The position numbers and the translations under genes are program-made. The notes beneath the pieces were generated by a model. That model was not told where the DNA came from, searched no databases, and saw nothing but the letters and a program-made list of their open reading frames with translations. From assembly GCA_026770705.1 (NCBI GenBank), contig JANJGN010000121.1, positions 1,426,001 to 1,490,000 on the forward strand: DNA of 64,000 nt, given 5' to 3'. How positions within the stretch are numbered: the stretch's first letter is position 1; the number at the start of each line of letters is the position of its first letter. This stretch comes from Isurus oxyrinchus (lineage: Eukaryota). Positions 1 through 43,877 of this stretch are shown piece after piece.

Positions 1-29
1 AGATTTTGAATCTCATGCGCTTGCTCATA

Positions 30-532
30 TTTAATTCATTCACAGGATGCAGGCGTTGCTGATCTCGGCAACATTTAGTGCCCGTCCCTAATTACCCATT
101 GAGCCGTTGTCTTGAACGGCTGCAGACCATGTGCTGTAGGTACACAGACACTGCTTTTAGGGAGGGAGTTCCAGGATTTTGACACAGCAACAGTGAAGGA
201 ATGGCAATAGATTTCCAAGTCAGGATGGTGAGTGACTTGGAGTGGATCTTGCAGGTGGCGTTGCTCCCTTCTTATTGCTGTCCTTGTCCTTCTAGATGTT
301 AGGGTTTAGAAGGTGCTGTTCAAGGAGCCTTGGTGAGCTGTTGCAGTGCATCTTGTAGATGGTACACACTGCTGCCACTGTGCACTCACAGTGGAGGGAG
401 TGAATGTTGAAGATGATGGGTGGGATGCCGCTCAAGTGGGCTGCTTTGTCCTGGATGGTGTTGAGCTTCTTGAGTGTTGTTGGAGCTGCACTCATCCAGG
501 CAAATGAAGAGTATTCCATCACACTCCTGACG
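30..532 (-). mobile_element. L2/CR1-clade LINE 3' fragment (repeated upstream of every array exon)
   Basis: Minus-strand ORF MMEYS..AWMSAAPTTLKKL.TIQDKAA matches the C-terminal part of the RT-bearing LINE fragment at 56440-57470 and shares its 3' tail. Confidence 0.8.
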
Positions 533-572
533 AGCTCAGTGATTAATGTGTTGATAATTTTGTATTTGAAAG

Positions 573-830
573 ATTCTCCTCACAACACGTCTGTCAGGAT
601 GACACTGGAAAAAGGAAAGGTGATATCTCTAAGTTGTTCCAGTGACGGGAATCCTGCAGTCCACAATTTCACCTGGTTTAAAATCTCCCAAGGAAAGGTG
701 ATGAATCTGGCGCTCGCTGGTCAAACTATTACAGTTCCTTATGGATTCGAAGAGGAAATCTCCTACTACTGTGAAGCAACAAGTATCCTTGGCAGTTCCC
801 AATCTCTGCCCATTAGAATTCCCACAGGAT
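573..830 (+). CDS. Siglec-like gene 1, C2-set Ig exon, repeat unit 1
   Basis: Acceptor ttgaaag at 571-572 and donor GTGAGT at 831; 258 bp, phase 1-1. Encodes (Y)SPHNTSVRMTLEKGKVISLSCSSDGNPAVHNFTWFK...SYYCEATSILGSSQS...PTG, with the C..W..YxC Ig signature and a CD22-like C-x-S-x-x-N-P motif. Confidence 0.9.
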
Positions 831-844
831 GTGAGTATATTTTT

Positions 845-1115
845 TATTCTTCATGGGATGGAGATGACACTGGCTAGACCAACATTTATTGACCATTCCA
901 AATTACCCTTGAACTGAATGGCTTACTGGCCATTTCAGAGGGTATTCATGAGTCAACCACGTTGCTGTGAGTCTGGAGTCACATGTAGGCCAGACCAGGT
1001 AAGAACGGCAGATTTCCCTCCCTAAAGGACATTAGTGACCCAGACGGGGTTTTAATGACAATCGGTAATGTTTTCATGGTCTTCGTTAGACTTTCAATTC
1101 CAGATTCTCATTGAA
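845..1115 (-). mobile_element. SINE fragment sharing the LINE 3' tail (repeated after array exons 1-8)
   Basis: Reverse complement of the SINE seen on + at about 14820-15090, 32900-33180 and 49400-49860 (ggaaatctgccgtccttacc...gtgactccagacccacagc). Confidence 0.75.
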
Positions 1116-2270
1116 TTGGTTGGCAAGTGGACATTTGACACTTGGGCCACAATTTGTCCACAATTATCTGCTTGCCAGCCAATCAGCACACTCTTCTCAT
1201 GCAGTATAAATTGTTGTTCCTTTTGAGATTTGGTATTCTTGCAATTCTGTCCTGATGAGTGAAAGATGAAAACCTTTTACAGAATGTATCCTTTCTCACC
1301 AACTTTCAAGTTTAGTACTGCCAAGTGACTATAAATATATTCTTCTGTAAATCAGAATCTTGAATGCTCTCCCAATTGACCAACAATCATTCCTGGTACA
1401 TGAATCATAGAAAGTTAGTATGCAGGTGCAGCAAGGTGTTAGGAAGGCAAATGGAACGTTGGTGTTTATTGCAAGGGACCTCGAGTGTAAAAATAGGGAC
1501 ACATGTTACAACTGTACAGACTCTTGGTGAGACTGCATCAGCAGTACTGTGTGCAGTCTTGGCTTCTGACATAGAAAAGATGGGCCGAATGCGCAGTTGT
1601 AGATTAGCTGTAATTCTGTGTAACATTATCTGCAGGTGAGGAATACAGTGCAGTTTGTATGTGTGCTAGTGTTGGAGCTGTATCCAGTCCAGATTATATA
1701 AAAAAAACAATCAAATTTAGATTTTAAACCTCATAAGTTTCCCCAAATTTAATTCATTTGATGATATGGGCAACATTTATTGCCCCTCCCTAATTACCCC
1801 TTGAGCCGTTGTCTTCAACTGCAGCAGTCCGTGTGCTGTAGGTAAACCCACAGCACGGTTAGGCAGGGAGTCCAGGATTTTGTCCCAGCGACAGTGTAGG
1901 AATGGCAATAGATTTCCAAGTCAGGATGGTGAGTAATTTGGAGGGGAACTAGCAGGTGGTGGTGTTCCCATGAGTCTTCTGTCCTTGTCCTTCTAGATGT
2001 TAGAGGTCACAGGCTTGGAAGGTTCTATTAAAGGAGCCTTGGTGAACAAGTGCATCTTGTGGAGGGTGATGCCACTGAGTGTCAGCGCTGGAGGGAGTGA
2101 ATGTTGAAGATGGTGGGTGGATGCTGTTCAAGTGGGCTGCTTTGCCCTGGTTGGTGTTGAGCCTCTTGAGTGTTGTTGGAGCTGCACTCTTCCAGGCAAG
2201 TGGAGAGTGTTCCATCACACTCCTGACTTCAGCTCAGTGTTTAATGTGTTGATAATTTTGTATTTCAAAG

Positions 2271-2528
2271 ATTCTCCTCGCAATACATCTATCAGGATGA
2301 CACTGGAAAAAGGAAAGATGATTTCTCTAAGTTGTTCCAGTGATGGCAATCCAGCAGTCCACAATTTCACCTGGTTTAAGATCTCCCAAGGCAAGGTGAC
2401 GAATCTGGCACTCACTGGTCAAACTATTACAGTTCCTTATGGATTTGATGAAGAAATCTCCTACTACTGTGAAGCAACAAGTATCCTGGGCAGTTCCCAA
2501 TCTCTGCCCATTAGAATTCACACTGAAT
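2271..2528 (+). CDS. Siglec-like gene 1, C2-set Ig exon, repeat unit 2
   Basis: tttcaaag acceptor, GTGAGT donor, 258 bp, open frame, both Cys and the Trp retained. Confidence 0.9.
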
Positions 2529-3969
2529 GTGAGTAATTTTTTTATTCGTTCATGGGATGAAGGTCTCACTGGCTGGACCAACATTTATTGCTCATCCCAA
2601 ATTACCCTGGCACACAGTGGTTTGCTGGGCCATTTCAGAGGGTATTGAAGAGTCAACCACTTTGCTGTGGGTCTGGAGTCACATGTAGGCTAGACCAGGG
2701 AAGGACAGCAGATTTCCCTCCCTAAAGGACATTAGTGACCCAGACGGGGTTTTAATGACAATCGGCAATGTTTTCATGGTCATCGTTAGACTTTCAATTC
2801 CAGATTCTAATTGTTTGGCAAGTCGACATTTGACATTAGGGCTACAATTTTCCACAATTATCTGTTGCCAGCTAATCAGCACCCTCTTCTCATGCAGTAT
2901 AAATTGTTGTTCTTTTTGAGATTTGGCATTCTTGCAATTCTGTCCTGAGGAGTGAAAGATGAAAAGCTTTGACAGATTGTCTCCTTTCTCACCAACGCTC
3001 AAGCTTTGTGGTGTCAAGCAGCTGTAAATATCATCTTCTGTAAATCAGAGTCCTGAATACCTTCTGAAATGACTAACACGTCAATCCTGGTACATGAATA
3101 ATAGAAAGTTAGTATGCAGGTGCAGCAAGTGATTAGGAAGACAAGTGGAATGTTGGTGTTTATTGCAATGGAGCTTCAGTGTAAAAGCTGGGACACATGT
3201 AACAACTGTACAGGCTGTTGGTGAGACTGCATCAGGAGTACTGTGTACAGTCTTGCCTTCTGACATAGAAAAGATCGGCGAATGCGCAGCTGTAGACTAC
3301 CTGTAATTCTATGTAACATTATCTGCAAGTGAGGAATACAGTGCAGTTTGTATGTGTGCTAGTGTTGGAGCTGCATCCAGTCCATGATTATATAAAGAGA
3401 CTATTCAAATCTAGATCTTAAACCTCGTGAGTTTGCCCACATTTAATTCATTTTCTGATATTGGCAACATTTAGTGCCCATCCCTAATTACCCCTTGAGC
3501 CTGAACTGTTGCAGCTCATGTGCTGTAGGTATACCCACAATGCTGTTAGGGAGGGATTTCCAGGATTTTGACTCACAACACTGAAGGAATGGTGATAGAT
3601 TTTCAAATCAGGATGGTAACTGGCTTGGAGGGTAACTTGCAGGTGGAGGTGTTCCATTTATCTGCTGCCCTTGTCCTTCTAGATGTTAGAGGTCATGGGT
3701 TTGGAAGGTGCTGTCTTAGGAGCCTTGGTGAGTTGTTGCAGTGCATCTTGTAGACGGTACACACTGCTGCCAATGTGCATTCATGGTGGAGGGAGTGAAT
3801 GTTGAAGATGGTGGGTGGGATGCCGATCAATCCGGCTGCTTTGTCCTGGATGGTGTCGAGCTTCCTGAGTGTTGTTGGAGCTGCACTCATCTCAGCAACT
3901 AGTGAGAATTCCATCACACTCCTGACTTTAGCTCAGTGGTTAATGTGTTGATAATTTTGGATTTGAAAG

Positions 3970-4227
3970 ATTATCCTCACAACATGTCTGTCAGGATGAC
4001 ACTGGAAAAAGGAAAGATGATTTCTCTAAGTTGTTCCAGTGACGGGAATCCAGCAGTCCACAATTTCACCTGGTTTAAGATCTCCCAAGGCAAGGTGACG
4101 AATCTGGCACTCGCTGGTCAAACTATTATGGTTCCTTATGGATTTGAAGAGGAAATCTCCTACTACTGTGAAGCAACAAGTATCATGGGCAGTTCCCAGT
4201 CTCTGCCCATTAGAATTCCCACAGAAT
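3970..4227 (+). CDS. Siglec-like gene 1, C2-set Ig exon, repeat unit 3
   Basis: ttgaaag acceptor, GTGAGC donor, 258 bp open frame (YPHNMSV...). Confidence 0.9.
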
Positions 4228-5671
4228 GTGAGCAATTTTTTTTATTTGTTGATGGGATGGTGGTCTCACTGGCTAGACCAACATTTATTGCCCATCCCAA
4301 ATTACCCTTGAACTGAGTGGCTAACTGGGCCAATTCGGAGGGAATTGAAGTGTCAGCCACATCACTCTGGGTCTGGAGTCACATGTTGGCTAGACCCGGT
4401 AAGGACGGCAGATTTCCCTCCCTGAAGGACATTAGTGAACCAAATGGGTTTTTAACGACAATTGGCAATGTTTTCATGGTCATTGTTTGAAGTTTAATTC
4501 AAGATTCTAACTGAATTGTTTGACAAGTGGACATTTGACAATTTGGCCACAATTTGTCCACAATTATCTGCTTAACAGCCAATCAGCAAACTCTTCTCAT
4601 GCATATAAATTGTTGTTCCTTTTGAGATTTGGTATTCTTGCTTTTCTGTCCTGATGAGTGAAAGATGAAAAGCTTTGACAGAATGTCTCCTGTCTCACCA
4701 ATGCTTAAGTTTAGTACTGCCAAGTGACTATAAATATCTTCTTCTGTAAACCGGAATCCTGAGTGCTTTCCCAATTGACTAACACATCATTCCTGGTACA
4801 TGAATCATAGGAAGTTAGTATGCAGGTGCAGCAAGTGGTTAGGAAGGCAAATGGGACATAGGTGTTTATTGCAAGGGAGCTCGAGTGTAAAAGTAGGGAC
4901 ACATGTAACAACTGTACAGGCTCTTGGCGAGACTGCAGCAGGAGTACTGTGTGCAGTCTTGGCTTACGACATAGAAAAGATGGGTCGAATGTGCAGTTGT
5001 AGATTACCTGTAATTCTGTGTAACATTATCTGCAGGTGAGGAATACAGTGCAGTTTCTACGTGTGCTAGTGTTGGAGCTGTATCCAGTCCACGATTATAT
5101 GAAGAAATCTAGATTTTAAACCTCATGAGTTTCCCCATATTTAAAACATTTGATGATATGGGCAACATTTATGGCCCATCCCTAATTACCGCTTGAGCCG
5201 TTGTCTTCAACTGCTGCAGTCCATGTGCAGTAGGTACACCCACTATTAGAGTGTGAGGTCCAAGATTTTGACCCAGTGATAGTGTAGGAATGGCAATAGA
5301 TTTCCAAGTCGGGATAATGAATGACTTGGAGAGGAACTTACAGTTGGTGGTGTTCCCATGAGTATTCTTTCCTTGTCCTTCTAGATGTTAGAGGTCACAA
5401 GCTTGGAAGGTGCTGTTAAAGGAGCCTTGGTGAGCAGTTGCAGTGCATCTTGTAGAGGGTACACACTGATGCCACTGTGCGTTCATGGTGGAGGGAGTGA
5501 ATGATGAAGTTGATGGGTGGGATGCCAGTCAAGTGGGCTGCTTTGTCCTGGATGGTGTCGAGCTTCCTGAGTGTTGTTGGAGCTGCACTTTTCCAGGCAA
5601 GTGGAGAGTATTCCATCACAATCCTGACTTTAGCTCAGTGAATAATTTGTTGTTAATTTTGTATTTGAAAG

Positions 5672-5929
5672 ATTCTCCTCACAATACGTCTGTCAGGATG
5701 ACACTGGAAAAAGGAAAGATGATTTCTCTAAGTTGTTTCAGTGACGGGGATCCAGCAGTCCACAATTTCACCTGGTTTAAGATCTCCCAAGGAAAGATGA
5801 TGAATTTGGCACTCGCTGGTCAAACTATTACAGTTCCTTATGGATTCGATGAGGAAATCTCCTACTACTGTGAAGCAACAAGTATTCTGGGCAGTTCCCA
5901 GTCTCTGCCCATTAGAATTCCCACTGAAT
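5672..5929 (+). CDS. Siglec-like gene 1, C2-set Ig exon, repeat unit 4
   Basis: AG acceptor and GTGAGT donor, 258 bp open frame (SCFSDGDP variant). Confidence 0.9.
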
Positions 5930-7373
5930 GTGAGTAATTTTTTTATTCATTCATGGGATGGAGGTGCCACTGGCTAGACCAACATTTATAGCCCATCCCA
6001 AATTACCCTGGAACAGAATGGCTTGCTGGCCATTTCAGAGGGTATTGATAAGTTAACCACATAGCTGTGGGTCTGGAGTCATATGTAGGCCAGACCAGGT
6101 AAGGACAGCAGATTTCCCTCCCTAAAGGACATTAGTGACCCAGATGGGGTTTTAACGACAATCGGCAATGTTTCCATGGTCATCGTTAGACTTTCAATTC
6201 CAGATTCTCATTGAATTGGTTGGCAAGTGGACATTTGACCACTTTGGCCACAATTTGTCCACAATTATCTGCTTGCCAGCTAATCAGCACATTCTCCTCA
6301 TGCAGTATAAATTGTTGTTCCCTTTGAGATTTGGTATTCTTGCAATTCTGTCCTGATGAGTGAAAGATGAAAAGCTTTGATAGAATGTCTCCTTTCTCAC
6401 CAATGCTAAGGTTCTGTGCTGCCAAGTGACTGTAAACATCGTCTTCTGTAAATCAGAATGCTGAATACTCTCTCAAATGACTAACAAATTATTCCTGGTA
6501 CATGAATCATACAAAGTTAGTATGCGGTTTGGAAAGCAAATGGAACGTTGGTGTTATGGCAAACAAACTTGAGTGTAAAAGTAGAGACATATACTATACT
6601 ACAACTGTACAGGGTCTTGGTGAGACTGCATCAGGAATACTGTGTACAGTCTTGTCTTCTGACATAGAAAAGATGGGCCAAAAGTGCAGCTGAAGGCTAG
6701 CTGTAATTCTGTATAACATTATCTGCAGGTGAGGAATACAGTGCAGTTTGTATGTGTGCTAGTGTTGGAGCTGTATCCAGTCCATGATTACATAAAGAGA
6801 CTATTCAAATCTAGAGTTTAAACCTCATGAGTTTGCTCATTTTTGATTCATTCACAGGATGTGAGACCTGCTGATATGGGTAATATTTATTGCCCATCCC
6901 TAATTACCCCTTGTCCTGAACTGCTGCAGTCCATGTGCTGTACGTATACCCACAGTGCTGTTAGGGAGGGAGTTCCAGGATTTTGACCCAGCGATAGTGA
7001 AGGAAAGGCCGATACCTTTCCAATTCAGGATGGTGAGAGGCTTGGTGGGCAACTTGCAGGTGGTGTTGTTCCCATTTTTCTGCTGCCCTTGTTCTTCTTA
7101 GGGTTTGGAAGGTGCTGTTCAAGGAGCCTTGGTGAGCTTTTGTAGTGCATCTTGTAGATGGTACACAATGCTGCCCATGTGCGATCATGGTGGAGGGAGT
7201 GAATGTTGAAGATGGTGGGTGGGATGCCATTCAAGTGGGCTGATTTGCCCTGGATTGTGTTGAGCTTCTTGAGTGTTGTTGGAGCTGCACTTTTCCAGGC
7301 AAATGGAAAGTATTCCATCACACTCCTGACTTTAGCTCAGTGGTTAAAGTGTTGATAATTTTGTATTTGAAAG

Positions 7374-7631
7374 ATTCTCCTCACAACACGTCTGTCAGGA
7401 TGACACTGGAAAAAGGAAAGATGATTTCTCTAAGTTGTTTCAGTGATGGGAATCCAGAAGTCCACAATTTCACCTGGTTTAAGATCTCCCAAGGCAAGGT
7501 GACGAATCTAGCGCTCGCTGGTCAAACTATTACGGTTCCTTATGGATTTGAAGAGGAAATCTCCTACTACTGTGAAGCAACAAGTATCCTGGGCAGTTCC
7601 CAGTCTCTGCCCATTAGAATTCCCACAGGAT
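7374..7631 (+). CDS. Siglec-like gene 1, C2-set Ig exon, repeat unit 5
   Basis: AG acceptor and GTAAGT donor, 258 bp open frame (SCFSDGNPEV...PTG). Confidence 0.9.
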
Positions 7632-8040
7632 GTAAGTAATTTTTTTATTCTTCAGGGGATGGAGATGTCACTGGCTAGACCAACATTTATTGCCCATCCC
7701 AAATTACACTTGAACTGAATGGCTTGCTGGGCACTTCAGAGGGTATTCATGAGTGAACCTCATTGCTGTGGGTCTGGAGTCACATGTAGGCCAGACCAGG
7801 TAAGGACGGCAGATTTCCCTCCCTAAAGGACATTAGTGACCCAGATGGGGTTTTAACGACAATCGGCAATGTTTTCATGGTCTTCGTTAGACTTTCAATT
7901 CCAGATTCTCATTGAATTGGTTGGCAAGTCGACATTTGACATTTTATCCACAATTGGTCCACAATTATCTGTTGCCAGCTAATCAGCACCCTCTCCTCAT
8001 GCAGTATAAATTGTTCCCTTTGAGATTTGGTATTCTTGTA

Positions 8041-8082
8041 ATTCTGTCCTGATGAGTGAAAGATGAAAAGCTTTGACAGAAT
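8041..8082 (+). ncRNA. Minimal type I hammerhead-ribozyme-like motif (best-preserved array copy)
   Basis: ATTCTGTC-CTGATGA-GTGAAAGAT-GAAA-AGCTT-T-GACAGAAT: an 8-bp stem I, the CUGAUGA and GAAA core, and a palindromic AAGCUU stem III. Homologous cores start at 1252, 2945, 4651, 6353, 9864, 11579 and 13295. Confidence 0.65.
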
Positions 8083-9187
8083 GTCTCCTTTCTCATCAAT
8101 AGCTCAGGTTCTGCGCTGCCAAGTGACTGTAAACATCGTCTTCTGTAAATCAGAGTCCTGAATACTCTCTCAAATGACTAACACATCATTCCTGGTACAT
8201 GAATCGTAGAAAGTTAGTATGCAGGTGCAGCAAGGTGTTAGGAAGGCAAACCTGGAATGTTGGTGTTTATTGCAGAGCTTGAGTGTAAAAGTAGGGACGT
8301 ATCATATTCTACAACCGTACAGGCTCTTGGTGAGATTGCATCAAAAATACTGTGTTAGGAAGGCAAATGGAACGTTGGTGTTTATTGTAAGCAAGCTTGA
8401 GTGTAAAAGTAGGGACGCATGTTACAACTCTATAGGCTCTTGGTGAGACTGCATCAGGAGTACTGTGTACAGTCTTGTTTTCTGACATAGAAAAGATGGG
8501 GCTGAATATGCAGCTGTATACTACCTGTAATTCTGTGTAACATTATCTGCAAGTGAGGAATACAGTGCAGTCTGTACATGTGCTAGTGTTGGAGCTGCAT
8601 CCAGTCCATGATTATATAAAGAGAGTATTCAAATCTAGATCTTAAACCTCATGAGTTTGCCCACATTTAATTCATTTTCTGATATTGGCAACATTTAGTG
8701 CCCATCCCTAATTACCCCTTGAGCCTGAACTGTTTCAGCTCATGTGTTGTAGGTGTACCCACAATGCTGTTAGGGAGGGATTTCCAGGATTCTGACTCAG
8801 CGACGCTGAAGGACTGGTTTTAGATTTCCAAATCAGAATGGTGACTGGCTTGGAGGGTAACTTGCAAGTGGAGGTGTTCCCATTTATCTGCTGCCCTTGT
8901 CCTTCTAGATGTTAGAGGTCAAGGGTTTAGAAGGTGCTGTTCAAGGTGCCTTGGTGAGTTGTTGCAGTGCATCTTGTACATGGTACACAGTGCTGCCACT
9001 GTGCATTCATGGTGGAGGGAGTGAATGTTGAAGATGGGATGCCACTCAAGTCAGCTGCTCAGCCTGGATGGTGTTGAACTTCCTGAGTGTTATTGGAGCT
9101 GTACTCATCCAGGCAACTGGAGAGAATTCCATCACACTCCTGACTTTAGCTCAGTGGTTAATGTGTTGATAATTTTGGATTTGAAAG

Positions 9188-9445
9188 ATTCTCCTCACAA
9201 CACGTCTGTCAGGCTGACACGGGAAAAAGGAAAGGTGATTTCTCTAAGTTGTTCCAGTGACGGCAATCCAGCAGTCCACAATTTCACCTGGTTTAAGATC
9301 TCCCAAGGCAAGGTGACGAATCTGGCACTCGCTGTTCAAAATATTACAGTTCCTTATGGATTTGAAGAGGAAATCTCCTACTACTGTGAAGCAACAAGTA
9401 TCCTGGGCAGTTCCCAGTCTCTGCCCATTAGAATTCCCACTGAAT
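9188..9445 (+). CDS. Siglec-like gene 1, C2-set Ig exon, repeat unit 6
   Basis: AG acceptor and GTGAGT donor, 258 bp open frame with an extra NIT sequon. Confidence 0.9.
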
Positions 9446-10897
9446 GTGAGTACTTTTTTTTATTTGTTGATGGGATGGAGGTCTCACTGGCTAGACCAAC
9501 ATTTATTGCCCATCCCAAATTACCCTTTAACTGAGTGGCTTGCTGTGCAATTTCGGAGGGTATTGAAGTGTCAACCACATCACTCTGGGTCTGGAGTCAC
9601 ATGTTGGCTAGACCCGGTAAGGACGGCAGATTTCCCTCCCTGAAGGACATTAGTGGACCAAATGTATTTTAACAACAATCGGCAATGTTTTCGTGGTCAG
9701 TTAGTATTTTAATTGCAGATTCTAATTGAATTATTTGACAAGTGGACACTTGACACTTTGGCCACCATTTGTCCACAATTATCTGCTTGCCAGCCAATTA
9801 GCACACACTATTCATGCAGTATCAATTGTTCCTTTTGAGATTTGGTATTCTTGCAATTCTGTTCTGATGAGTGAAAGATGAAAAGCTTTTACAGAACATC
9901 TCCTTTTACACCAATGCTCAAGTTCAGTACTGCCAAGTGACTATAAATATCTTCTTCTGTAAATCAGAATCCTGAATACTCTCTCAAATGACCAACACAT
10001 CATTCCTGGTACATGAATCATAGAAAGTTAGTATGCAGGTGCAGCAAGTGGTTAGGAAGGCAAATGGAACGCTGGTGTTTATTGCAAGGGAGCTTGAATG
10101 TAAAAGTAGGGACGTATGTAACAACTGTACAGGCTCTTGGTGAGACTGCATCAGGTGTACTGTGTACAGTCTTGGCTTCTGACATAGAAAAGATGGGTCT
10201 GAATGTGCAGCTGTAGACTACCTGTAATTCTGTGTAACATTATCTGCAGGTGAGGAATACAGTGCAGTTTGTACATGTTATATTGTTGGAGCTGTATCCA
10301 GTCCATGATTATATAAAGAGACTATTCAAATCTAGATTTTAAACCTTATGAGTTTCCCCATATTTAAAACATTTGATGATATGGGCAACATTTATGGCCC
10401 ATCTCTAATTACCCCTTGAGCCGTTGTCTTCAACTGCTGCAGTCTATGTGCAGTAGGTACACCCACAGTGCAGTTAGGCAGTGAAATCCAGGATTTTGGC
10501 CCAGTGACAGTGTAGGAATGGCAATAGATTTCCAAGTCAGGATGGTGATGATTTGGAGGGGAACTTGCAGGTGGTGGTGTTCCCATGAGTCTTCTGTCCT
10601 TGTCCTTCTAGATGTTAGAGGTCACAGATTTGGAAAGTGCTGTTAAAGGAGCCTTGGTGAGCAGTTGCAGTGCATCTTGTAGATGGTACACACTGCTGCC
10701 ACTGTGCATCGGCGGTGGAGAGAGTGAATGTTGAAGATGGTGGGTGGATGCCGTTCACGTGGGATGCTTTGTCCTGGATGGTGTCGAGCCTCTTGAGTTT
10801 TGTTGGAGTTGCACTCATCCAGGCAAGTGGAGAGTGTTCCATCACACTCCTGACTTTAGCTCAGTGTTTAATGTGTTGATAATTTTGTATTTCAAAG

Positions 10898-11155
10898 ATT
10901 CTCCTCGCAATACATCTATCAAGATGACACTGGAAAAAGGAAAGATGATTTCTCTAAGTTGTTCCAGTGACGGGAATCCAGCAGTCCACAATTTCACCTG
11001 GTTTAAGATCTTCCAAGGCAAGGTGACGACTCTGGTGCTCACTGGTCAAACTATTACAGTTCCTTATGGATTTGATGAGGAAATCTCCTACTACTGTGAA
11101 GCAACAAGTATCCTGGGCAGTTCCCAGTCTCTGCCCATTAGAATTCCCACTGAAT
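10898..11155 (+). CDS. Siglec-like gene 1, C2-set Ig exon, repeat unit 7
   Basis: tttcaaag acceptor, GTGAGT donor, 258 bp open frame. Confidence 0.9.
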
Positions 11156-12615
11156 GTGAGTAATATTTTTATTCGTTCATGGGATGGAGGTGTCACTGAC
11201 TAGACCAACATTTATTGCCCATCCCAAATTACCCTGGAACAGAATGGCTTGCTGGGCCATTTCAGAGGGTATTGAAGAGACAACCACATTGCTGTGAGTC
11301 TGGAGCCACATGTAGGCCAGACCAGGTAAGGACAGCAGATTTCCCTCCCTAAAGGACATTAGTGACCCAGATGGGGTTTTAACAACAATCGGCAATGTTT
11401 TCATGGTCATCGTTAGACTTTCAATTCCAGATTCTAATTGAATTGGTTTGCAAGTGGACATGTGACACTTTGGCAAAAATTTGTCCACAATTATCTGCTT
11501 CCAAGGCAATCAGCACACTCTACTCATGCAGTATCAATTGTTATTCCTTTTGAGATTTGGTATTCTTGCAATTCTGTTCTGATGAGTGAAAGATGAAAAG
11601 CTTTTAGAGAATGTCTCCTTTTACACCAATGCTTAAGTTTAGCACTGCCAAGTGACTATAAATATCTTCTTCTGTAAATCAGAATCTTGAATACTCTCTC
11701 AAATGACTAACACATCATTCCTGGTACATGAATCAGAGAAAGTTAGTATGCAGCTGCAGCAAGTGGTTAGGAAGGCAAATGGAACGTTGGTGTTTATTGC
11801 AAGCAAGCTTGAGTGTAAAAGTAGGGACACATGTAACAACTGTACAGGCTCTTGGTGAGACTGCATCAGGAGTACTGTGTACAGTCTTGGCTTCTGACAT
11901 AGAAAAGATGGGGCTGAATATGCAGCTGTAGACTACCTGTAATTCTGTGTAACATTATCTGCAGGTGATGAATACAGTGCAGTTTGTACTTGTTCTAGTG
12001 TTGGAGCTGTATCCAGTCCATGATTATATAAAGAGACTATTCAAATCTAGATTTTAAACCTCATGGGTTTGCCCATATTTAACTCATTTGCTGATATGGG
12101 CAACATTTATTGCCCATCCCTAATTTCCCCTTGAGCCATTGTCTTGAACTGCTGCAGTTCATGTGCAGTAGATACAACCACAGTGCAGTTAGGCAGTGAG
12201 TTCCAGGATTTTGGCCCAGTGACAGTGTAAGAATGGCAATAGATTTCCAAGTCAGGACGGTGAATGACTTGGAGGGGAACTTGCAGGTGGTGGTGTTTCC
12301 ATGAGTCTTCTGTCCTTGTCCTTCTAGATGTTAGAGGTCACAGGCTTGGAAGCTGCTGTTAAAGGAGCCTTGGTGAGCAGTTGCAATGCATCTTGTAGAT
12401 GGTACACACACTGCTGCCACTGTGCATCGGCGGTGGAGAGAGTGAATGATGAAGATGGTGGGTGGATGCTGTTCAAGTGGGCTGCTTTGTCCTGGATGGT
12501 ATCGAGCCTCTTGATTTTTGTTGGAGCCGCACTCATCCAGGCAAGTGGAGAGTGTTCCATCACACTCCTGACTTTAGCTCAGTGGTTAATGTGTTGATAA
12601 TTTTGTATTTGAAAG

Positions 12616-12873
12616 ATTCTCCTCGCAATACATCTGTCAGGATGACACTAGGAAAAGGAAAGATGATTTCTCTAAGTTGTTCCAGTGACGGCAATCCAGC
12701 AGTCCACAATTTCACCTGGTTTAAGATCTCCCAAGGCAAGGTGACGAATCTGGCACTCGCTGGTCAAACTATTACAGTGCCTTATGGATTTGATGAGGAA
12801 ATCTCCTACTTCTGTGAAGCAACAAGTATCCTGGGCAGTTCCCAATCTCTGCCCATTAGAATTCACACTGAAT
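12616..12873 (+). CDS. Siglec-like gene 1, C2-set Ig exon, repeat unit 8
   Basis: AG acceptor and GTGAGT donor, 258 bp open frame (SYFC variant). Confidence 0.9.
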
Positions 12874-14321
12874 GTGAGTAATTTTTTTTTTTCGTTCTTG
12901 GGATGAAGGTCTCACTTGCTAGACCAACATTTATTGCCCATCCCAAATTACCCTGGAACAGAGTGGTTTGCTGGGCCATTTCAGAGTGTATTGAAGAGTC
13001 AACCACATTGCTGTGGGTCTGGAGCCACATGTAGGCCAGACCAGGTAAGCACAGCAGATTTCCCTCCCTAAAGGACATTAGTGAACCAGATGGGTTTTTA
13101 ACAACAATCGGAAATGTTTTGGTCATTGTTAGAATTTTAATTCCAGATTCTAATTGAATTGCTTGGCAAGTGGACATTTGACACTTTGGCAACAATTTGT
13201 CCACAATTATCTGCTTCCAAGGCAATCATCACACTCTACTCATGCAGTATCAATTGTTGTTCCTTTTGAGATTTGGTATTCTTGCAATTCTGATCTGATG
13301 AGTGAAAGATAAAAAGCTTTTACAGAATATCTCATTTCACACCATGCTCAAGTTTAGTACTGCCAAGTGACTATAAATATCTTCTTCTGTAAATCAGAAT
13401 CCTGAATACTCTCTCAAATGACTAACACATCATTCCTGGTACATGAATCATAGAAAGTTAGTATGCAGGTGCAGCAAGTGGTTAGGAAGGCAAATGGAAC
13501 GTAGGTGTTTATTGTAAGGGAGCTCGAGTGTAAAAGTAGGGACGCATGTTACAATTTTACAGGCTCTTGGTGAGACTGCATCAGGAGTACTGTGTACAGT
13601 CTTGGCTTCGGACATAGAAAAGATCCGGCTGAATATGCAGCTGTAGACTACCTGTAATTCTGTGTAACATTATCTGCAGGTGAGGAATACAGTGCAGTTT
13701 GTACTTGTGCTAGTGTTGGAGCTGTATCCAGTCCATGATTACATAAAGAGACTATTCAAATCTAGATTTTAAACCTCATGAGTTTGCCCATATTTAATTC
13801 ATTTGCTGATATGGGCAACATCCCTAATTACCGCTTGAGCCATTGTCTTGAACTGCTGCAGTCCATGTGCATTAGGTACAACCACAGCAATGTTAGGCAG
13901 TGAGTTCCAGGATTTTGACCCAGTGACAGTGTAAGAATGGCAATAGATTTCCAAGTCAGGATGGTGAATGACTTGGAGGGGAACTTACAGGTGGTGGTGT
14001 TTCCATGAGTCTTCTGTCCTTGTCCTTCTAGATGTTAGAGGTCACAGATTTGGAAAGTGCTGTTAAAGGAGCCTTGGTGAGCAGTTGCAGTGCATCTTGT
14101 AGATGGTACACACACTGCTGCCACTGTGCATCGACGGTGGAGAGAGTGAATGTTGAAGATGATGAGTGGTATGCCACTCAAGTGGGCTACTTTGTCCTGG
14201 ATGGTATCAAGCTTCTTGAGTGTTGTGGGAGCTGCACTCATCCAGGCAAGTGGAGAGTATTCTATTCACACCCCTGACTTCAGCTCAGTGTTTAATGTGT
14301 TGATAATTTTGTATTTGAAAG

Positions 14322-14579
14322 ATTCTCCTCACAACACGTCTGTCAGGATGACACTGGAAAAAGGAAAGATGATTTCTCTGAGTTGTTCCAGTGACGGGAA
14401 TCCAGCAGTCCACAATTTCACCTGGTTTAAGATCTCCCAAGGCAAGGTGACGAATCTCGCGCTCGCTGGTCAAACTATTGCAGTTTCTTATGGATTCGAT
14501 GAGGAAATCTCCTACTACTGTGAAGCAACAAGTATCCTGGGCAGTTCCCAGTCTCTGCCCATTAGAATTCCCACTGAAT
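14322..14579 (+). CDS. Siglec-like gene 1, C2-set Ig exon, repeat unit 9 (last)
   Basis: AG acceptor and GTGAGT donor, 258 bp open frame. The downstream intron no longer matches the repeat unit. Confidence 0.9.
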
Positions 14580-15169
14580 GTGAGTAATTTCAATCCTGAC
14601 TTTTAAACAATTCCACATCTTGTCCAAACTCCGAGGTGAACCAAATCTCCCCTTGGGTGTTGCTGAAAACATGCTGTCGAAGGTTTCAATCCTCGTCAGG
14701 ACAGAGTCACGAGAAAACCCAATCTCAAAGGGAACAGCCATTTCTGATGCGGGGGAAGAGGGCGTGCTGATTGGCTGGCAAGTCGACATTTCTCCACAGT
14801 TTGTTCACAATTCTCAGTGATGGTGACCGTGAAACTGCCAGATTGCTGTAAAAACCCATCTGGTGCACAAATCTCCTTTAGGGAGGGAATTCTGCCATCC
14901 TTACCCGGTCTGGCCTACATGTGACTCCTGACCCACAGCGATGTGGGTGAATCTTAACTGCCCCTCTGAATGGGCCGGGCATGCCACTCAGTTGTATTCG
15001 AGCGGGCGGCTCACCACCGCCTTCTCAAGGGGCAACTAGGGATGGGCAATAAACGCTGGCCCTGCCAGTGATGCCCACATTACTGAATGAATTCCAATAG
15101 AAGAGGAATCCTCCCATTCTAGAGATTGGCGATCCATACACTGGGCTGACATTCCCAGTCATTCAATAA

Positions 15170-15810
15170 TCAGCCTGTTCCCCCATTCAATCAGATCACG
15201 GCTGGTCTGTATATTAACCCCATCCACCCACCTCGGTTCCTTAAACCTTAAACACCCCCCGACCCAACAAAAATCTCTCAATCTCGGTTTTGAAATTTAC
15301 GATTGACCCCTCCCAGCCTCGACAGCTTTTTCTGGGGGAGAGAGTTCCAGATTTCCACCCCCGCTTTGTGTGAAGAAGTGCTTCCTGACATCACCCCCTG
15401 AACGGCCTGGCTCCAATTTTAAGGTTCTGCCCCCTTGTTCTGGACCCCCCCCCACCTCAACCCCACCACCAGGGGAAATAGTTTCTCTCTGTCAACCCCA
15501 TCGAATCCTTTAATCATCTTAAACCCCTCGATTAGATCACCCCTTAATCTTCGAGACTCGAGGGAACACAAGCCTGGTCTGTGCAACCTGTCCTCGGGAT
15601 TTAACCCTTTCAGCCCCGGGATCGTTCTGGTGACTCTGGGCTGCAGCCCCTCCAAGGACAATATATCCTCCCTGAGGGGCGGGACCCACAACTGAAGCCA
15701 TTAACTGCAGGTGGGCTCTGAGCAGAGATTTATAACCTGACGCATCACTCCGACCCTCTTTGTATCCCCGCTTCCTTGGGGTAAAGGCCCCTATTCCATC
15801 GGAATTCTCT
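15170..15810 (-). mobile_element. CR1-type LINE 3' fragment
   Basis: Minus-strand ORF ...LGLCSLESRRLRGDLIE.FK.IKGFD.VD.EKLFPL is typical CR1 ORF2 C-terminus. Confidence 0.75.
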
Positions 15811-15876
15811 ATTGCGACGGTGTGACTGACACGGGATATATTAACGGGAGGTTTTCCTCTGAACTGTATCTCACAG

Positions 15877-16182
15877 ATGGTGCGGTCATACTGCCAGAGT
15901 CCAGGTGTACACAGTATCTGACCAACCTCACCTGCCTCTGTCTGGTCCGTGCAAACTCCTCAGTCCACATCACGTGGGCTCTGCCGGGAAGGACGCTCAG
16001 ACAGACAGGATCGGACGGGATCTACAAGACGGTGTCGGCCAGGGTCGGTCCCTTGGTAACCAACACGCTGACCATCAGTGGGAGCAACATGGCCGTTCAG
16101 ACGGTGAACTGCTCTGTGGTGAATGATCGAGGGGACAGATACTTACAGAGGCGATTGGAAATCCAGGCTGTGGGGGAACAAG
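15877..16182 (+). CDS. Siglec-like gene 1, membrane-proximal Ig exon (MAG domain-5-like)
   Basis: tcacag acceptor, G|GTCAGT donor, 306 bp, phase 1-1. YGAVILPESRCTQYLTNLTCLCLVRAN resembles the MAG/Siglec membrane-proximal pattern 'P.lL.ES.C...V.CLCVV.sN'. Confidence 0.85.
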
Positions 16183-16364
16183 GTCAGTCCCTGCCCAAGG
16201 TCATTAAAGAGTAAATGACCATTGGATAGTGGACACACGGGGGATTCAGAAACCTGTCCCTATTCAGGACAAAACAAGGTCACGTTATTATAGTGCGGGA
16301 CCAAGACACATCCCGAAAGACATTCCCATCGTATCCACGTCAGACGTTGAAGGCTGTGGCAGAG

Positions 16365-17052
16365 TGTGGCGCTGTCGGAGGGTCAGTACTGAGGGAGTGC
16401 TGCACTGTCGGAGGGTCAGTACTGAGGGAGTGCTGCACTGTCGGAGGGTCAGTACTGAGGGAGTGCTGCACTGTCGGAGGGTCAGTACTGAGGGAGTGCT
16501 GCACAGTCGGAGGGTCAGTACTGAGGGAGTGCTGCACAGTCGGAGGGTCAGTACTGAGGGAGTGCTGCACTGTCGGAGGGTCAGTACTGAGGGAGTGCCG
16601 CACTGTCTGAGGGTCACTACTGAAGGAGTGCTGCACTGTCGGAGGGTCAGTACTGAGGGAGTGCTGTACTGTCGGAGGGTCAGTACTGAGGGAGTGCTGC
16701 ACTGTCTGAGGGTCTCTACTGAAGGAGTGCTGCACTGTCAGAGGGTCAGTACTGAGGGAGTGCTGCACTGTCAGAGGGTCAGTACTGAGGGTGTGCTGCA
16801 CTGTCAAAGGGTCAGTACTGAGGGAGTGCTGCACTGTCGGAGGGTCAGTAATGAGAGAGTGCTACACTGTCAGAGGGACAGTACTGAGGCAGTGCTGCAC
16901 TGTCAGAGGGTCAGTACTGAGGGTGTGCTGCACTGTCAGAGGGTCAGTACTGAGGGAATGCCGCACTGTCTGAGGGTCACTACTGAAGGAGTGCTGCACT
17001 GTCAGAGGGTCAGTACTGAGGGTGTGCTGCACTGTCAGAGAGTCAGTACTAA
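16365..17052 (+). repeat. 33-bp minisatellite (GAGGGTCAGTACTGAGGGAGTGCTGCACTGTCG)n
   Basis: About 20 tandem copies; source of the spurious CRRVSTEGVLH ORFs. Confidence 0.95.
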
Positions 17053-17054
17053 AG

Positions 17055-17495
17055 GAGGTTACAATTCTCAGGAAAGACTGAACAAGCTGGGATTCTTTTC
17101 TCTAGAAAAGAGAAGGCTGAACGGTGACTTGATTGAGGTCTTTAAAATGATGAAAGCGTTTCAATAGGGTAGACGTAGAGATGATGTTTCCACTTATGGA
17201 TGAGAACAGAACTAGGGGCCATCGATATAAGACCATCATTAATAAATCCAATGGGAAATTCAGGAGAAACTTCTTTACCCAGAGAGTGGGGAGAATGTGG
17301 GACTCGCTCCCACAGGGAGTGATCGAGGTGAATAGTGTTGATGTATTTAAGGGGGAAGCTGGATAAACACCTGAGTGAGAAAGGGGTAGAAGGACGTGGT
17401 GATGGGGTGAGATAGGGGGTGGGGGGAGGCTCGTGTGGAGTAGAAACACCACCACAGAGCAGATGGGCTGAACGGTCTTTTGCTGTGCTGGAAGT
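17055..17495 (+). mobile_element. CR1 LINE 3' end fragment
   Basis: ERLNKLGFFSLEKRRLNGDLIEVFK ... RTRGHRYK ... RRNFFTQRV..W.SLP. Confidence 0.8.
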
Positions 17496-17910
17496 GAACT
17501 CTATCCTGTGATAATTCTAGGTCTCCTGCATTTATTCAACGCGCTGAGAACCTGAGGACACCCCAAGGAGCGTTCCAGCCTTTGCTTGGAGTGTGGTCAC
17601 AGCCCTACTTCTGCACAGCAAGATCCCACAAATGTCAATGGCCAAATAATCAGTTGATAATTATTTTATGTTAACTGTTGTGCTTTCAGGGCTGAGAGAA
17701 CTCCCCCTGCACCCATCGTCTTTGCTCTTCTTGAGCGGACCAGGCTCATTATCTGTGATGCCTCCCACAGTAGGATAGCCAGCTGAGTAGGCTGCCACTT
17801 GACGATAATTGTGTGACGCTTGGTGATTTATGGGAAGTGATCTTTACAGGGTGCGCGTGAGAATTTAAGGGATTTCTCACCTGATCATTTCTCATTCTTC
17901 TCCTCCTTAG

Positions 17911-18031
17911 CTGGAACAACGTCTGGCCTGATGTGGAAAATTGGATTAGGTTCTGTGGGAGGGGCTGTCCTGCTCATCACTACGACAATCGCGATTTACC
18001 TCATTACAAAGACATTCAGGAGAACGGACAA
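17911..18031 (+). CDS. Siglec-like gene 1, transmembrane exon
   Basis: Strong pyrimidine tract plus ttag, donor AA|GTGAGT. In phase it encodes AGTTSGLMWKIGLGSVGGAVLLITTTIAIYLITKTFRRTD: a hydrophobic stretch followed by a basic stop-transfer. Confidence 0.85.
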
Positions 18032-18057
18032 GTGAGTGTGGGCACAACTGGGAAATC

Positions 18058-20650
18058 AACCCTCCCTTTCTCTGTAACCTACTCCAATCCTTACACACCT
18101 CCCTATTTCTGTAACCTCCTCCAGTCCCTACAACCCTCCCTATTTCTGTAACCTCCTCCAGCTGCGACAATCTTCCCTCTCTCTGTAACCACCTCCAGCC
18201 CCTACAACCCTCCCTATCTCTGTAACCTCCTCCAGTCCCTACAACCCTCCCTATCTCTGTAACCTCCTCCAGTCCCTACAACCCTCCCTATCTCTGTAAC
18301 CTCCTCCTGCCCCTACAACCCTCCTTATCTCTGTAACCTCCTCCAGCCTCTACAACCCTCCCTATCTCTGTAACCTCCTCCAGCACCTACAACCCTCCCT
18401 TTCTGTAACCTCCTCCAGTCCCTACAACCCTCCCTATTTCTGTAACCTCCTCCAGTCCCTACAACCCTCCCTATTTCTGTAACCTCCTCCAGTCCCTACA
18501 ACCCTCCCTATTTCTGTAACCTCCTCCAGTCCCTACAACCCTCCCTATCTCTGTAACCTCCTCCAGCTGCGACAATCTTCCCTCTCTCTGTAACCTCCTC
18601 CAGCCCCTACAACCCTCCCTATCTCTGTAACCTCCTACAGCCTCTACAACCCTCCCTATCTCTGTAACCTCCTCCAGCACCTACAACCCTCCCTTTCTGT
18701 AACCTCCTCCAGTCCCTACAACCCTCCCCATCTCAGTGACCCACATCAGACCCTACAACCCTCCCTATCTCTGTAACCTCCTCCAGCCCCTACAACCCTC
18801 CCTATCTCTGTAACCTCCTCCAGCCCCTACAACCCTCCCTATCTCTGTAACCTCCTCCAGCCCCGACAACCCTCCCTTTCTGTAACCTCCTCCAGCCCCT
18901 ACAACCCTCCCTATCGCTGTAACCTCCTCCAGCCCCGACAACCCTATCTCTGTAACCTCCTCCAGCCCCTACAACCCTCCCTATCTCTGTAACCTCCTCC
19001 AGCCCCTACAACCCTCCTTATCTCTGTACCCTCCTCCAGCACCTACAACCCTCCCTTTCTGTAACCTCCTCCAGTCCCTACAACCCTCCCCATCTCAGTG
19101 ACCCACATCAGACCCTACAACCCTCCCTATCTCTGTAACCTCCTCCAGCCCCTACAACCCTCCCTATCTCTGTAACCTCCTCCAGCCCCTACAACCCTCC
19201 CTATCTCTGCAACCTCCTCCAGCCCCGACAACCCTCCCTATCTCTGTAACCTCCTCCAGCCCCTACAACCCTCCCTATCTCTGTAACCTCCTCCAGCCCC
19301 TACAACCCTCCCTATCTCTGTAACCTCCTCCAGCCCCTACAATCCTCCCTTTCTGTAACCTCCTCCAGCTCCTACAACCCTCCCTATCTCTGTAAACTCC
19401 TCCAGCCCCTACAACCCTCCCTATCTCTGTAACCTCCTCCAGCCCCGACAACTCTCCCTATCTCTGTAACCTCCTCCAGCCCCTACAACCCTCCCTATCT
19501 CTGTAACCTCCTCCAGTCCCTACAACCCTCCCCATCTCAGTGACCCACATCAGACCCTACAACCCTCCCTATCTCTGTAACCTCCTCCAGCCCCGACAAC
19601 CCTCCCTTTCTGCAACCTCCTCCAGCCCCTACAACCCTCCCTATCTCTGTAACCTCCTCCAGCCCCGACAACCCTCCCTATCTCTGTAACCTCCTCCAGT
19701 CCCTACAACCCTCCCCATCTCAGTGACCCACATCAGACCCTACAATCCTCCCTATCTCTGTAACCTCCTCCAGCCCCTACAACCCTCCCTATCTCTGTAA
19801 CCTCCTCCAGCCCCAACAACACTCCCTATCTCTGTAACCTCCTCCAGCCCCTACAACCCTCCCAATCTCTGTAACCTCCTCCAGCCCCAACAACCCTCCC
19901 TATCTCTGGAACCTCCTCCAGCCCCGACAACCCTCCCTATCTCTGTAACCTCCTCCAGCCCCTACAACCCTCCCAATCTCTGTAACCTCCTCCAGCCCCA
20001 ACAACCCTCCCTATCTCTGGAACCTCCTCCAGCCCCGACAACCCTCCCTATCTCTGTAACCTCCTCCAGCCCCGACAACCCTCCCTATCTATATAGCCTC
20101 CTGCATCCTGCCAGAATCAGGAAAAGAACCGGAGGGGGAGATGAGGGGAATTTTTTTTTGACACAGCGAATTGTTGTGATCTGGAAGGCGTTGCCTGAAA
20201 GGGCGGTGGAAGCAGATTCAATAGCAACTTTCACAAGGGGGAATTGTATAAATACTCAAAGGGGAAAATTTTGCAGGTCTATGAGGGAAAGAGTGGGGTC
20301 ACGGACATTCGGGACTAATTGGACAGATCTTTCAAAGAGCCAGCACAGGCACGATGGGCTGAATGGTTTGTTTTGTCTCCTTATTCCTCCTCCCTATCTC
20401 TGTAACCCCTCCAGCCCCTACAACCCTCCCTATCTCTGTAACCCCTTCCAGCACCTACAACTCTCCCTATCTCTGTAACCTCCTCCAGCCCCTACAACCC
20501 TCCCTATCTCTGTAACCTCCTCCAGCCCCTACAACCCTCCCTATCTCTGTAACCTCCTCCAATCCCTACAACCCTCCCTATCTCTGTAACCTCCTCCAGC
20601 CCCTACAACCCTCCCTATCTCTGTAACCTCCTCCATCCCCTACAACCCTC
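18058..20650 (+). repeat. 37-bp minisatellite (CTCTGTAACCTCCTCCAGCCCCTACAACCCTCCCTAT)n
   Basis: Tens of tandem copies, interrupted at about 20100-20390 by a CR1 tail copy and running into an L2-like 3' tail at about 20650-20900. Confidence 0.95.
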
Positions 20651-41765: not shown

Positions 41766-43214
41766 ATGCAACGTGGGGGTTGGTGCTGTTAAGCATCTCA
41801 GGCTCCTCCCAGCTGAGATGATAGTGACCTTGCTCTGTATTATCAGGGAGCAGAGCTGAGGAAGCTTCATGATGGTGGGGGGGGGGAAATTGGAGCTGGT
41901 GCGAGCTCAGGCATGGGGGGGCAGCAAAGATTGGGACCTGCTGAGGTGGAAGAAGAGCAGAAGACAGGTGGCCGGTGGGGGGGGGGGAGATAGTGGGTGG
42001 GGGGCGGCTGTTTTGGGATTTAAATCCAAGTTATAAATCTGGAATGGAGGGCGAGTCTCAGTGGGGGTGACCGTGACAACCACGGCCGACGGTCGTGAAA
42101 ACCCAGCTGGTTCACACCCACGTCCCCTTTAGGGAGGGGAAGCCTGCCGTCCGTACCCTGGGCCTGGCCGACACGTGGCTCCCGGCCGACAGCAGCGTGG
42201 CTGACTCTTAGCTGCCCCTCTGGATGGGCTGAGCAGGCCATCGCCCAGTCCGAGGGCCAGTCAGGGACGGGGCAACAAGCCCCGGCCTCGCCAGCTGCGC
42301 CCGCATCCCGCGGAGTAACGAAACGAGCGAAAGGAAAAACGCCAGGAGATCGGGGGAGCCGGTGTCAATTTTTCCTGATTGATTTGTTCTGTCAGGGGGA
42401 CGTGGGGCGCCGTCGCCCATCCCCAACTGCCCTCAGACTGGCCACTTCGGAGGGGTCTGAAGTCGCCCGTCGGGCAGATTTCCCTCCCCGGAGGGAGGTC
42501 AGTGGTGACCCAGGCGGGTTTCCATGGCAAGCGGCGGGCAATGGTTTCGGGGGTCTCAATTCCAGACTTACCAGCCGAATTTAAATTCCACCAGCCGCCG
42601 CGGTGGGATTTTAACCCATTTCAGCCTGATTCGCCCGGGTTACTCACCCAGCGACGCTCCCACTACACCACCATCTCCCCCCTCCCATCCCCCCACCGCC
42701 TCCGCCCCCCCCACCCCCCCCACCCCACCCCCCACTACAGCTACCCCTTATTTATCGTTCCTAACATGTCGCCGAGAAACAGCGTGCTTAATGAAGGGGG
42801 AGAGTTGGGGGGGGGGGGGGGGGGGGGTGGTCGCTCAAAAGGAGGAATTCAATAGGAAGGAGCTGTCAATTCATGGCAGCCTCGAGACTCTAAGACCCTC
42901 CTTTTCAACTCGTCCTGTTATCTGAAGCAGTCCCGGGATTGCTTATTGACAACCCCTTCACCAGCCGCTCAACAAAACTCTTGCCGGGTTTCAAGGGGCC
43001 TTTTGGTTTTTTCTTTTTAAAAACCAGAAAGGAAAAATTTGCCCTTGCCTGCCCCCTTGGCCAGATTTGAACGGTTGGAGTTGAGGGAGATCGGTCTCTG
43101 GTCCTGAAATCACTCCGGTTTTCACTTCGGTAAACTGATGTGAAGTCGCCCCTCTTCAACTTGAGGAGGAGCCCAGCAACCGAAGAGGAAGACACCGAGT
43201 CATTGGCTGGTGCG

Positions 43215-43412
43215 TCCTCCATGGCAACGCGTCTGCCAATCAGAGGCCACCTGCCAATCAATCGGCACTCTCTTCTCAGGCGGTGTAAATTGTTCGCTTT
43301 GAGGTTGGGTATTCTCGCGGTTCTGCCCTGATGATGTTCAAGACGAAAAGCTTTGACGGAATGTCCCCTCTCGTCAACAATACTGGAGTCTCGTACCACC
43401 CAAATGACTACT
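43215..43412 (+). mobile_element. Dispersed copy of the CCAAT/TATA/hammerhead cassette (probable Penelope pseudo-LTR)
   Basis: ccaatcaatcggcactctcttctc...TTCTGCC-CTGATGA-TGTTCAAGAC-GAAA-AGCTTT-GACGGAA, homologous to the array cassette. Confidence 0.6.
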
Positions 43413-43877
43413 TGTACGCTAAATGGTAACGTGGATTCGGCTCCGGTGTCCAGGCTTGTGGACGAGCGACTCTTTTTCACGCGGCGCCTGTTTGGGATCT
43501 GGAACGCACTGCCTCAGGGTTGTGGGGGAGGCAGATTCAATGGTGGCTTTCGGAGAGGGAATTGGGTCATTGTACCCAAAATGGAAAAGCGTTGGGGGAG
43601 GGGCTACGGGGGGGAAGAAGTGGAAGGGCGGATTGCTGAGTTGCTCCTTCAGAGGGCCAGCACAGGCACGCGGCCCAAATGGCCTCCGCCTGTTCTGCCA
43701 ACCGTACAATGATTCTATGCCTGTGACTGAACACGTGTAGTCACCAACACAGTAACCGCACTAAAGTGATAACGGAGGGTGGCTTTACCCGGTGAACACG
43801 TTATCGGGGGGTGGGGAGGGGGGGGGAGGAGAAGCGGGAATGTCTGTCCCGGTGCCGGTTAGCAGCAGCCCACTTGC

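Follow-up and report, generated by a model that had tools for sequence, protein, structure and literature searches.

What placed a ribozyme motif in every intron of a tandem exon array, and does the motif do anything there? The 64,000-nt window analyzed here (Isurus oxyrinchus, contig JANJGN010000121.1, positions 1,426,001 to 1,490,000, forward strand; C121 below) contains an array of immunoglobulin (Ig)-domain exons in a Siglec-like gene, and the introns following the first eight of its exons each carry a type I hammerhead motif on the sense strand. The hammerheads were very probably inherited passively: the 165-nt 3′ end of a Penelope-like element (PLE) was inserted once, was likely inactive already, and was multiplied by DNA-level tandem duplication of the Ig exon. 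In weighing this reading, we treated as demonstrated the PLE membership, the single origin, the lesions that predate the amplification, the neutral decay of the promoter part and of dispersed copies, the location of the array edges off the cut site, and the exon-exon junctions (in RNA-like contigs). The array and the PLE remnants in the window are as follows.

573..830, + strand: Ig-domain exon 1 of 9 in the window, 258 nt, bounded by AG and GT; the other exons start at 2271, 3970, 5672, 7374, 9188, 10898, 12616, and 14322
573..14579, + strand: tandem exon array with a unit of about 1.7 kb, continuing upstream (exons at -2844 and -1123) in the Siglec-like gene
1172..1338, + strand: PLE 3′ end (pseudo-LTR remnant and tail; LTR, long terminal repeat), copy 1; hammerhead 1244-1285, predicted cut after 1277; stem-I junction pair and palindrome broken
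2865..3031, + strand: PLE remnant copy 2; hammerhead 2937-2978, predicted cut after 2970; intact core, 6-bp stem I
4572..4737, + strand: PLE remnant copy 3; hammerhead 4643-4684, predicted cut after 4676; intact core, 7-bp stem I
6273..6439, + strand: PLE remnant copy 4; hammerhead 6345-6386, predicted cut after 6378; intact core, 8-bp stem I including one wobble
7972..8136, + strand: PLE remnant copy 5 (reference); TATAAA at 8005, hammerhead 8041-8082, core 8049-8074, predicted cut after 8074
9787..9950, + strand: PLE remnant copy 6; hammerhead 9856-9897; 1.1-2.1 junction pair lost, a lesion common to copies 7 and 8
11499..11665, + strand: PLE remnant copy 7; hammerhead 11571-11612; broken stem I
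13215..13380, + strand: PLE remnant copy 8; hammerhead 13287-13328; G12 missing, broken stem I

Motif matching located the eight cores at 1252, 2945, 4651, 6353, 8049, 9864, 11579, and 13295, where the initial annotation had placed them. Seven of the eight match CTGANGA..GAAA strictly, the exception being the core at 13295 with G12>A. The description in that annotation also holds for the AAGCTT palindrome, for U17, and for stem I (ATTCTGTC/GACAGAAT), and stem II of the array hammerheads consists of 2 bp (G-U and U-A). Inspection of cores and stems confirmed both the lesions that had been claimed copy by copy and the ranking of copies 2-5 as the best preserved: the number of contiguous stem-I pairs at the junction is zero in copies 1, 6, 7, and 8, and the palindrome is also lost in copy 1. 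An Rfam scan of window positions 1-20000 yielded no match to a hammerhead family even at E ≤ 5. Seven further hammerhead copies lie upstream of the window; the whole array thus comprises 16 Ig exons and 15 hammerheads in two neighboring Siglec-like genes, which hold 5 and 11 repeats of the one Ig exon.

The core motif is not a chance occurrence, because exact matches to its 26-nt pattern number 2,054 genome-wide (1016 + 1038), compared with 0 + 0 for a reversed control. Array copy 5 could be aligned to all 30 sampled loci. The sequence common to the dispersed loci ends approximately 50-90 nt past the core and reaches upstream for variable distances of up to 1.37 kb. In this upstream part lies coding sequence for a GIY-YIG-type domain whose motif encloses two cysteines (CCHH), preceded by broken, putative reverse transcriptase (RT) motifs; a VVYEFQCQCDARYVG-type motif, followed by KQH and GQHL, recurs across loci, and the best ESM Atlas clusters (score 0.96) contain HTH_animal and GIY-YIG. 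Motifs that we take to be those of RT were seen by eye in broken frames of loci L061 and L062. A search of PDB sequences with the RT fragment gave 0 matches, and an intact RT-endonuclease open reading frame was not found among the family loci inspected. A query with the endonuclease fragment gave 37,036 first-look candidates, and the 150 that were scored (query excluded) showed 69-81% amino-acid identity, many of them with stops. A hammerhead lies 176-209 nt past the endonuclease match in 23 of 31 rows (two rows being duplicates), and a hammerhead region follows downstream in 56 of the 66 loci chosen through the endonuclease protein.

Among loci picked by the motif, an inverted upstream copy was present in 21 of 60 and a tandem copy in 1 of 60; inverted upstream copies are known for PLEs (PMC8557442; this and the other sources are cited from the portions of their text that were available). 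The 3′ ends of dispersed copies are bimodal, at +50-59 in 29 of 90 and at +80-89 in 21 of 90, as if a tail of 30-40 nt were optional. The linker zinc finger CX2-5CxxC, which separates Neptune/Nematis from Penelope/Poseidon (PMC8557442), was found in 0 of 26 translated rows of the RT-endonuclease linker, some of which were duplicate or out of frame. By the sequence criteria of PMC8557442, the family is an endonuclease-bearing (EN+) PLE; its clade is probably Penelope/Poseidon. The Penelope pseudo-LTR origin and the minimal type I architecture proposed initially are supported. Because stem I pair 5 covaries among subfamilies (T-A in 14, G-T in 5, and C-G in 4 of 30), the ribozyme fold was probably under selection in the active master elements. 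At the cleavage position, dispersed loci L069-L155 have C17 (decayed to T) or A17 (19 of 56), each with its own stem I sequence. On the + strand at window positions 43150-43420, another PLE end of this family stands alone; its stem II carries an insertion. The family may have been catalogued already.

The dispersed copies appear to be decaying without constraint on the core. In the 56 of the 66 endonuclease-picked loci that have the motif region, 104 non-CpG core mismatches were counted, where base-matched rates predict 100.5; 18 of the 56 retain an intact 11-nt catalytic core, and CpG decay is visible at positions 11.1, 12, and 17. These counts indicate that the family is decayed or dead and that its dispersed cores decay neutrally. 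Both C11.1 and C17 are kept in 87 genomic copies, whereas all 15 array copies have T at both positions, in agreement with the suspicion voiced in the initial annotation that G10.1-U11.1 and U17 were products of CpG decay. The G10.1-C11.1 pair, which is highly conserved in PLE hammerheads (PMC4209133), is replaced by G-U in 15 of 15, and the loop cytosine is lost in all 15 as well (A in 14 and G in 1). Since all carry the same CpG-decay lesions, the 15 hammerheads derive from one insertion, and the eight copies in the window are duplicates of it, not independent occurrences. Compared with the family majority, the founder shows 89.7% identity, and compared with the nearest subfamily 89.1%; the array copies retain 89-96% identity to the founder. 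Judged from these identities, a single insertion had decayed by about 10% and was then duplicated together with the exon.

Under this reading of passive inheritance, the PLE would have been inserted by target-primed reverse transcription, leaving a 5′-truncated end and a short inverted piece. CpG deamination would have converted G10.1-C11.1 to G-U and C17 to U, and unequal crossing-over would then have amplified the exon with its intron. The motif would now be transcribed within the pre-mRNA intron, cleave rarely or never, and leave with the intron. Two further features adjoin the PLE end in every unit and are given here for copy 5.

7915..7966, - strand: inverted short piece of the PLE upstream end, with a locus-specific spacer
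7640..7912, - strand: abundant repeat adjoining the PLE, its repetitiveness shown; we presume it to be a SINE (short interspersed element)-like repeat on this strand

Judged by eye, the PLE end seems to occupy one and the same AT-rich position within the SINE-like repeat both in dispersed locus L012 (near the core) and at window positions 7905-7925, and a preference of the PLE for insertion at this site is possible.

Whether cleavage contributed to the amplification can be judged from the edges of the array. In both genes the array starts at unit position ~1020; its end is at 269 or ~739, and the cut site is at 701; the edge on the 5′ side thus lies at least ~320 nt from the cut site. The end at 269 is probably due to a later exchange with a paralogue. 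In sequence terms, no feature of the array ties the amplification to cleavage, and the proposal that the ribozyme helped to drive it is unsupported, because the array edges miss the cut site. All 40 scored matches to the unit are on C121, C150, and C557, that is, the unit is confined to this gene cluster.

The layout had been described as retrozyme-like, and a unit of this kind would free one-exon monomers or circles of about 1.7 kb by double self-cleavage, with re-integration building the array. One hammerhead per head-to-tail unit, a PLE-derived motif, and a dimer-type architecture are indeed shared with the non-LTR retrozymes of animals (PMC7229834; 10.64898/2026.07.22.740005). The consensus lengths of those elements, however, are 51-972 bp and non-coding (10.64898/2026.07.22.740005), whereas the unit of the array is 1.7 kb long and contains a spliced 258-nt Ig exon and other repeat debris; it is restricted to the one gene cluster, the array neither begins nor ends at the cut site, 6 of its 15 motifs are broken, and its founder had decayed before the amplification. 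Membership among the retrozymes therefore fails, and re-integration as the origin of the array is largely refuted; we regard it as very unlikely.

The joint between an exon end and an exon start was found in contigs of three of four runs from two studies, whose libraries are only guessed to be RNA; any array gene is a possible source of this joint, and linear splicing and back-splicing look alike in it. In the X2 contigs, the depth of the exon was far above that of the flanking intron. Two contigs (X1 record 4 and X2 record 9), with RNA status again guessed, run uncut across the predicted cut site of copies 2 and 5, which speaks against release of monomers; they are compatible with uncut molecules and exclude nothing. 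When contigs were aligned to positions 500-15000, none of the 15 joints inspected out of 331 fell at a cut site; the alignment was swamped by repeat-derived contigs, and this is no evidence of absence. In folding predictions, the hammerhead conformer had +0.8 kcal/mol, compared with a minimum free energy of -7.7 in the best copies, and six CpG-intact dispersed copies were no better; predicted folding thus does not discriminate.

UUU is a poor cleavage triplet. Literature searches turned up no rate measured for UUU in combination with a G-U pair at 10.1-11.1. Metazoan minimal hammerheads are reported to be inactive as monomers and weak as dimers (PMC4209133). The hammerhead of Anolis Poseidon cleaves only with its protein and is dispensable for insertion in vitro, and it shows no RNA-seq ends at its site (PMC11167929).

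The remaining question is whether the motif has been maintained since its duplication. Decay at the neutral intron rate, which the initial annotation named as the mark of a passenger relic, is seen in the promoter part and in the dispersed copies and is ambiguous for the core within the array. Six of the 15 array hammerheads are broken, by lesions of A9, G12, the palindrome, the junction pair, or a 5-nt deletion, and the core is intact in 13 of 15.

Several results weigh against a wholly passive inheritance of an inactive PLE end. Pfam searches of the PLE fragments gave no match to GIY-YIG, returning only RVT_1 at E=0.13 and a spurious UL141, and U17 is permitted by the NUH rule, in which GUC is the best triplet (PMC2238771). 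Of the 15 array copies, 9 retain the core and the palindrome together with a stem I of 6 bp or more, and stem I has 8 bp in the array compared with ~5 in the family. The 26-nt core belongs to the least changed parts of the array intron: it has accumulated 6 parsimony changes, compared with a median of 20 for sliding windows along the intron; as few were found in 0.8-0.9% of sliding windows and in 1 of 53 non-overlapping tiles. Expectations matched to context (base, CpG, or trinucleotide) were 13.1-17.1 changes (p 0.009-0.049), and counts of alleles or variable columns gave p 0.03-0.09. In the seven upstream copies, which are outside the window and were unseen in the initial annotation, the 36-nt motif gave p 0.015-0.05, and five of the seven are identical to the founder at the 30 critical positions, compared with 0.97 expected (p 0.007). 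Change was low at the 30 critical positions (p 0.04-0.10) and neutral at the 6 tolerant ones.

These features could reflect a partly domesticated passenger, whose adjacent intronic hammerheads pair via AAGCUU, cleave slowly, and thereby modulate the turnover of the pre-mRNA, the processing of lariats, or how many Ig exons are included, with weak selection on the core. The core is under-mutated in the array (p ~0.01-0.09) and not in dispersed copies, the motif is on the sense strand of a transcribed and spliced gene, stem I is lengthened as noted above, the palindromes of copies 4 and 5 paired between molecules on cofolding, and conserved intronic hammerheads are known in amniotes, such as that of RECK (PMC6155905). 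Against this, the 11 catalytic positions by themselves are not significant (p 0.05-0.31), three unrelated 26-nt repeat-derived windows of the same intron are equally conserved, and several motif definitions were tried. Neighboring columns are positively correlated (tile variance 54.7 compared with 33.3 if independent), so the p-values for the core are optimistic. The lesion that breaks stem I has spread over the adjacent copies 6-8, no compensatory changes were seen in the broken hammerheads among the 15 copies, G-U at 10.1-11.1 and U17 are fixed in every copy, and the 10 paralogues fetched have no sense hammerhead. We therefore consider domestication unlikely and take the conservation of the core in the array as a weak hint of constraint. 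A stronger form of the idea is that a fossil Penelope hammerhead was co-opted in a Siglec gene, sense copies 1.7 kb apart dimerizing, slowly cutting the pre-mRNA, and freeing one-exon RNAs or tuning the number of Ig domains under weak selection; this is improbable.

The motif had further been described as part of a CCAAT-TATA cassette. CCAAT at 1179 and TATAAA at 1205 and 8005 are correctly placed, but of the 8 copies in the window only 3 have an exact CCAAT, 5 an exact TATAAA, and 2 both boxes. An active internal promoter would produce short hammerhead-headed or truncated transcripts from each intron. The boxes belong to the pseudo-LTR of the family, because they are frequent in dispersed copies (CCAAT in 55 of 90 and TATAAA in 44 of 90), and PLEs are thought to be transcribed from a pseudo-LTR promoter (PMC11167929). 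In the array, however, both boxes are intact in only 3 of 15 copies, and the promoter part changes at the rate of the intron (0.78 changes per site compared with 0.79 for the whole intron). An active promoter cassette is thus unsupported, and we hold it to be highly improbable.

Compared with known systems, the array motif is a member of the pseudo-LTRs with minimal type I hammerheads described for EN+ PLEs of the Penelope/Poseidon kind (PMC4209133, PMC11167929, PMC8557442). It differs from them in that stem II has 2 bp only, the family is decayed (best endonuclease matches at the identities given above), and the remnant was multiplied to 15 copies inside a host exon array and not by PLE tandem formation. 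It resembles the amniote intronic hammerheads of RECK, CTCL, and DTNB (PMC6155905) as a sense-strand, retroelement-related type I motif within a host-gene intron; the amniote motifs show cross-species conservation, whereas the array motif is minimal, CpG-decayed, lacks a sense copy in paralogues, and is at best weakly constrained. Literature searches found neither a hammerhead in an exon-duplication array nor this PLE family.

The array hammerheads are accordingly real, explained, and ordinary, with a small testable residue. As a passenger, the motif matters little in itself; it illustrates how duplication of an exon can imitate the layout of a retrozyme, and it is a marker of the past of the gene cluster. 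Fifteen natural variants of one minimal hammerhead in one pre-mRNA also offer a test of whether PLE minimal hammerheads cut as dimers in vivo when the PLE protein is absent (PMC4209133, PMC11167929). Should the weak conservation prove to reflect selection, the array would be a young case of the domestication of an intronic ribozyme, and if co-option is true, the ribozyme would have been switched on by host exon duplication.

The host gene cluster has a complex history of its own. Each array gene is preceded by a V-set and a C2-set exon; those of the gene that reaches into the window lie ~6.3 and 4.1 kb before it, and the best PDB matches of the V-set domain are MAG, sialoadhesin, and other Siglecs. 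In the V-set exon (C121, ~6.6-6.3 kb upstream; L063:3380-3733), YYFYVD is found where MAG has YYFRGD; the arginine of the MAG motif, which we take to be essential for sialic-acid binding, is apparently tyrosine here. Near-identical copies of the arrays (99.3-100%) are present on C150 and C557. The exon has 63 matches in total, 42 in arrays and 21 single (outside arrays), and they lie on C121, C150, C557, C52, C71, C189, C385, C646, C838, and C1130, a large and young Siglec-like cluster. C150 carries three array genes and C121 two, which suggests copy-number variation or haplotypes.

Exon 9 is followed by a different type of intron, which contains one further PLE remnant.

14620..14790, - strand: antisense PLE remnant after exon 9, with a wrecked hammerhead (core 14699); this intron type also follows the exon in single-exon paralogues

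All 10 of the single-exon paralogues fetched have this intron type and lack a sense hammerhead. Over 1150 nt of exon 9 and its downstream intron (window 14322-15470), the identity to single-exon paralogues is 97.4-97.5%, and the array units are ~85-90% alike among themselves. Because the exon 9 region is closer to the paralogues than the array units are to each other, the host gene looks chimeric through recent exchange. One contig contains the next downstream exon, for which neither the window nor the 10 kb after it gave a match.

The order of elements at window positions 14580-15100 is PLE (-), spacer, and SINE-like repeat (+), and that in the array introns (7640-8136) is SINE-like repeat (-), the same locus-specific spacer, and PLE (+). 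The flanks seem inverted about a common spacer, and the sense orientation of the hammerhead may have arisen by a local inversion. Compared for orthology, the sense PLE of the array and the antisense PLE found after exon 9 and in paralogues have 3 of 11-13 derived states in common, no more than several dispersed copies do. A mobile composite family of SINE and PLE end was considered and rejected, as 41 of 42 genomic matches to the intervening spacer are inside this gene family.

In the upstream hammerhead at -2162, the catalytic A9 is T on C121 and intact on C150; this lesion is recent or polymorphic, or a sequencing error. Unit 5 is lengthened by a 113-bp internal tandem duplication at window positions 8235-8468.

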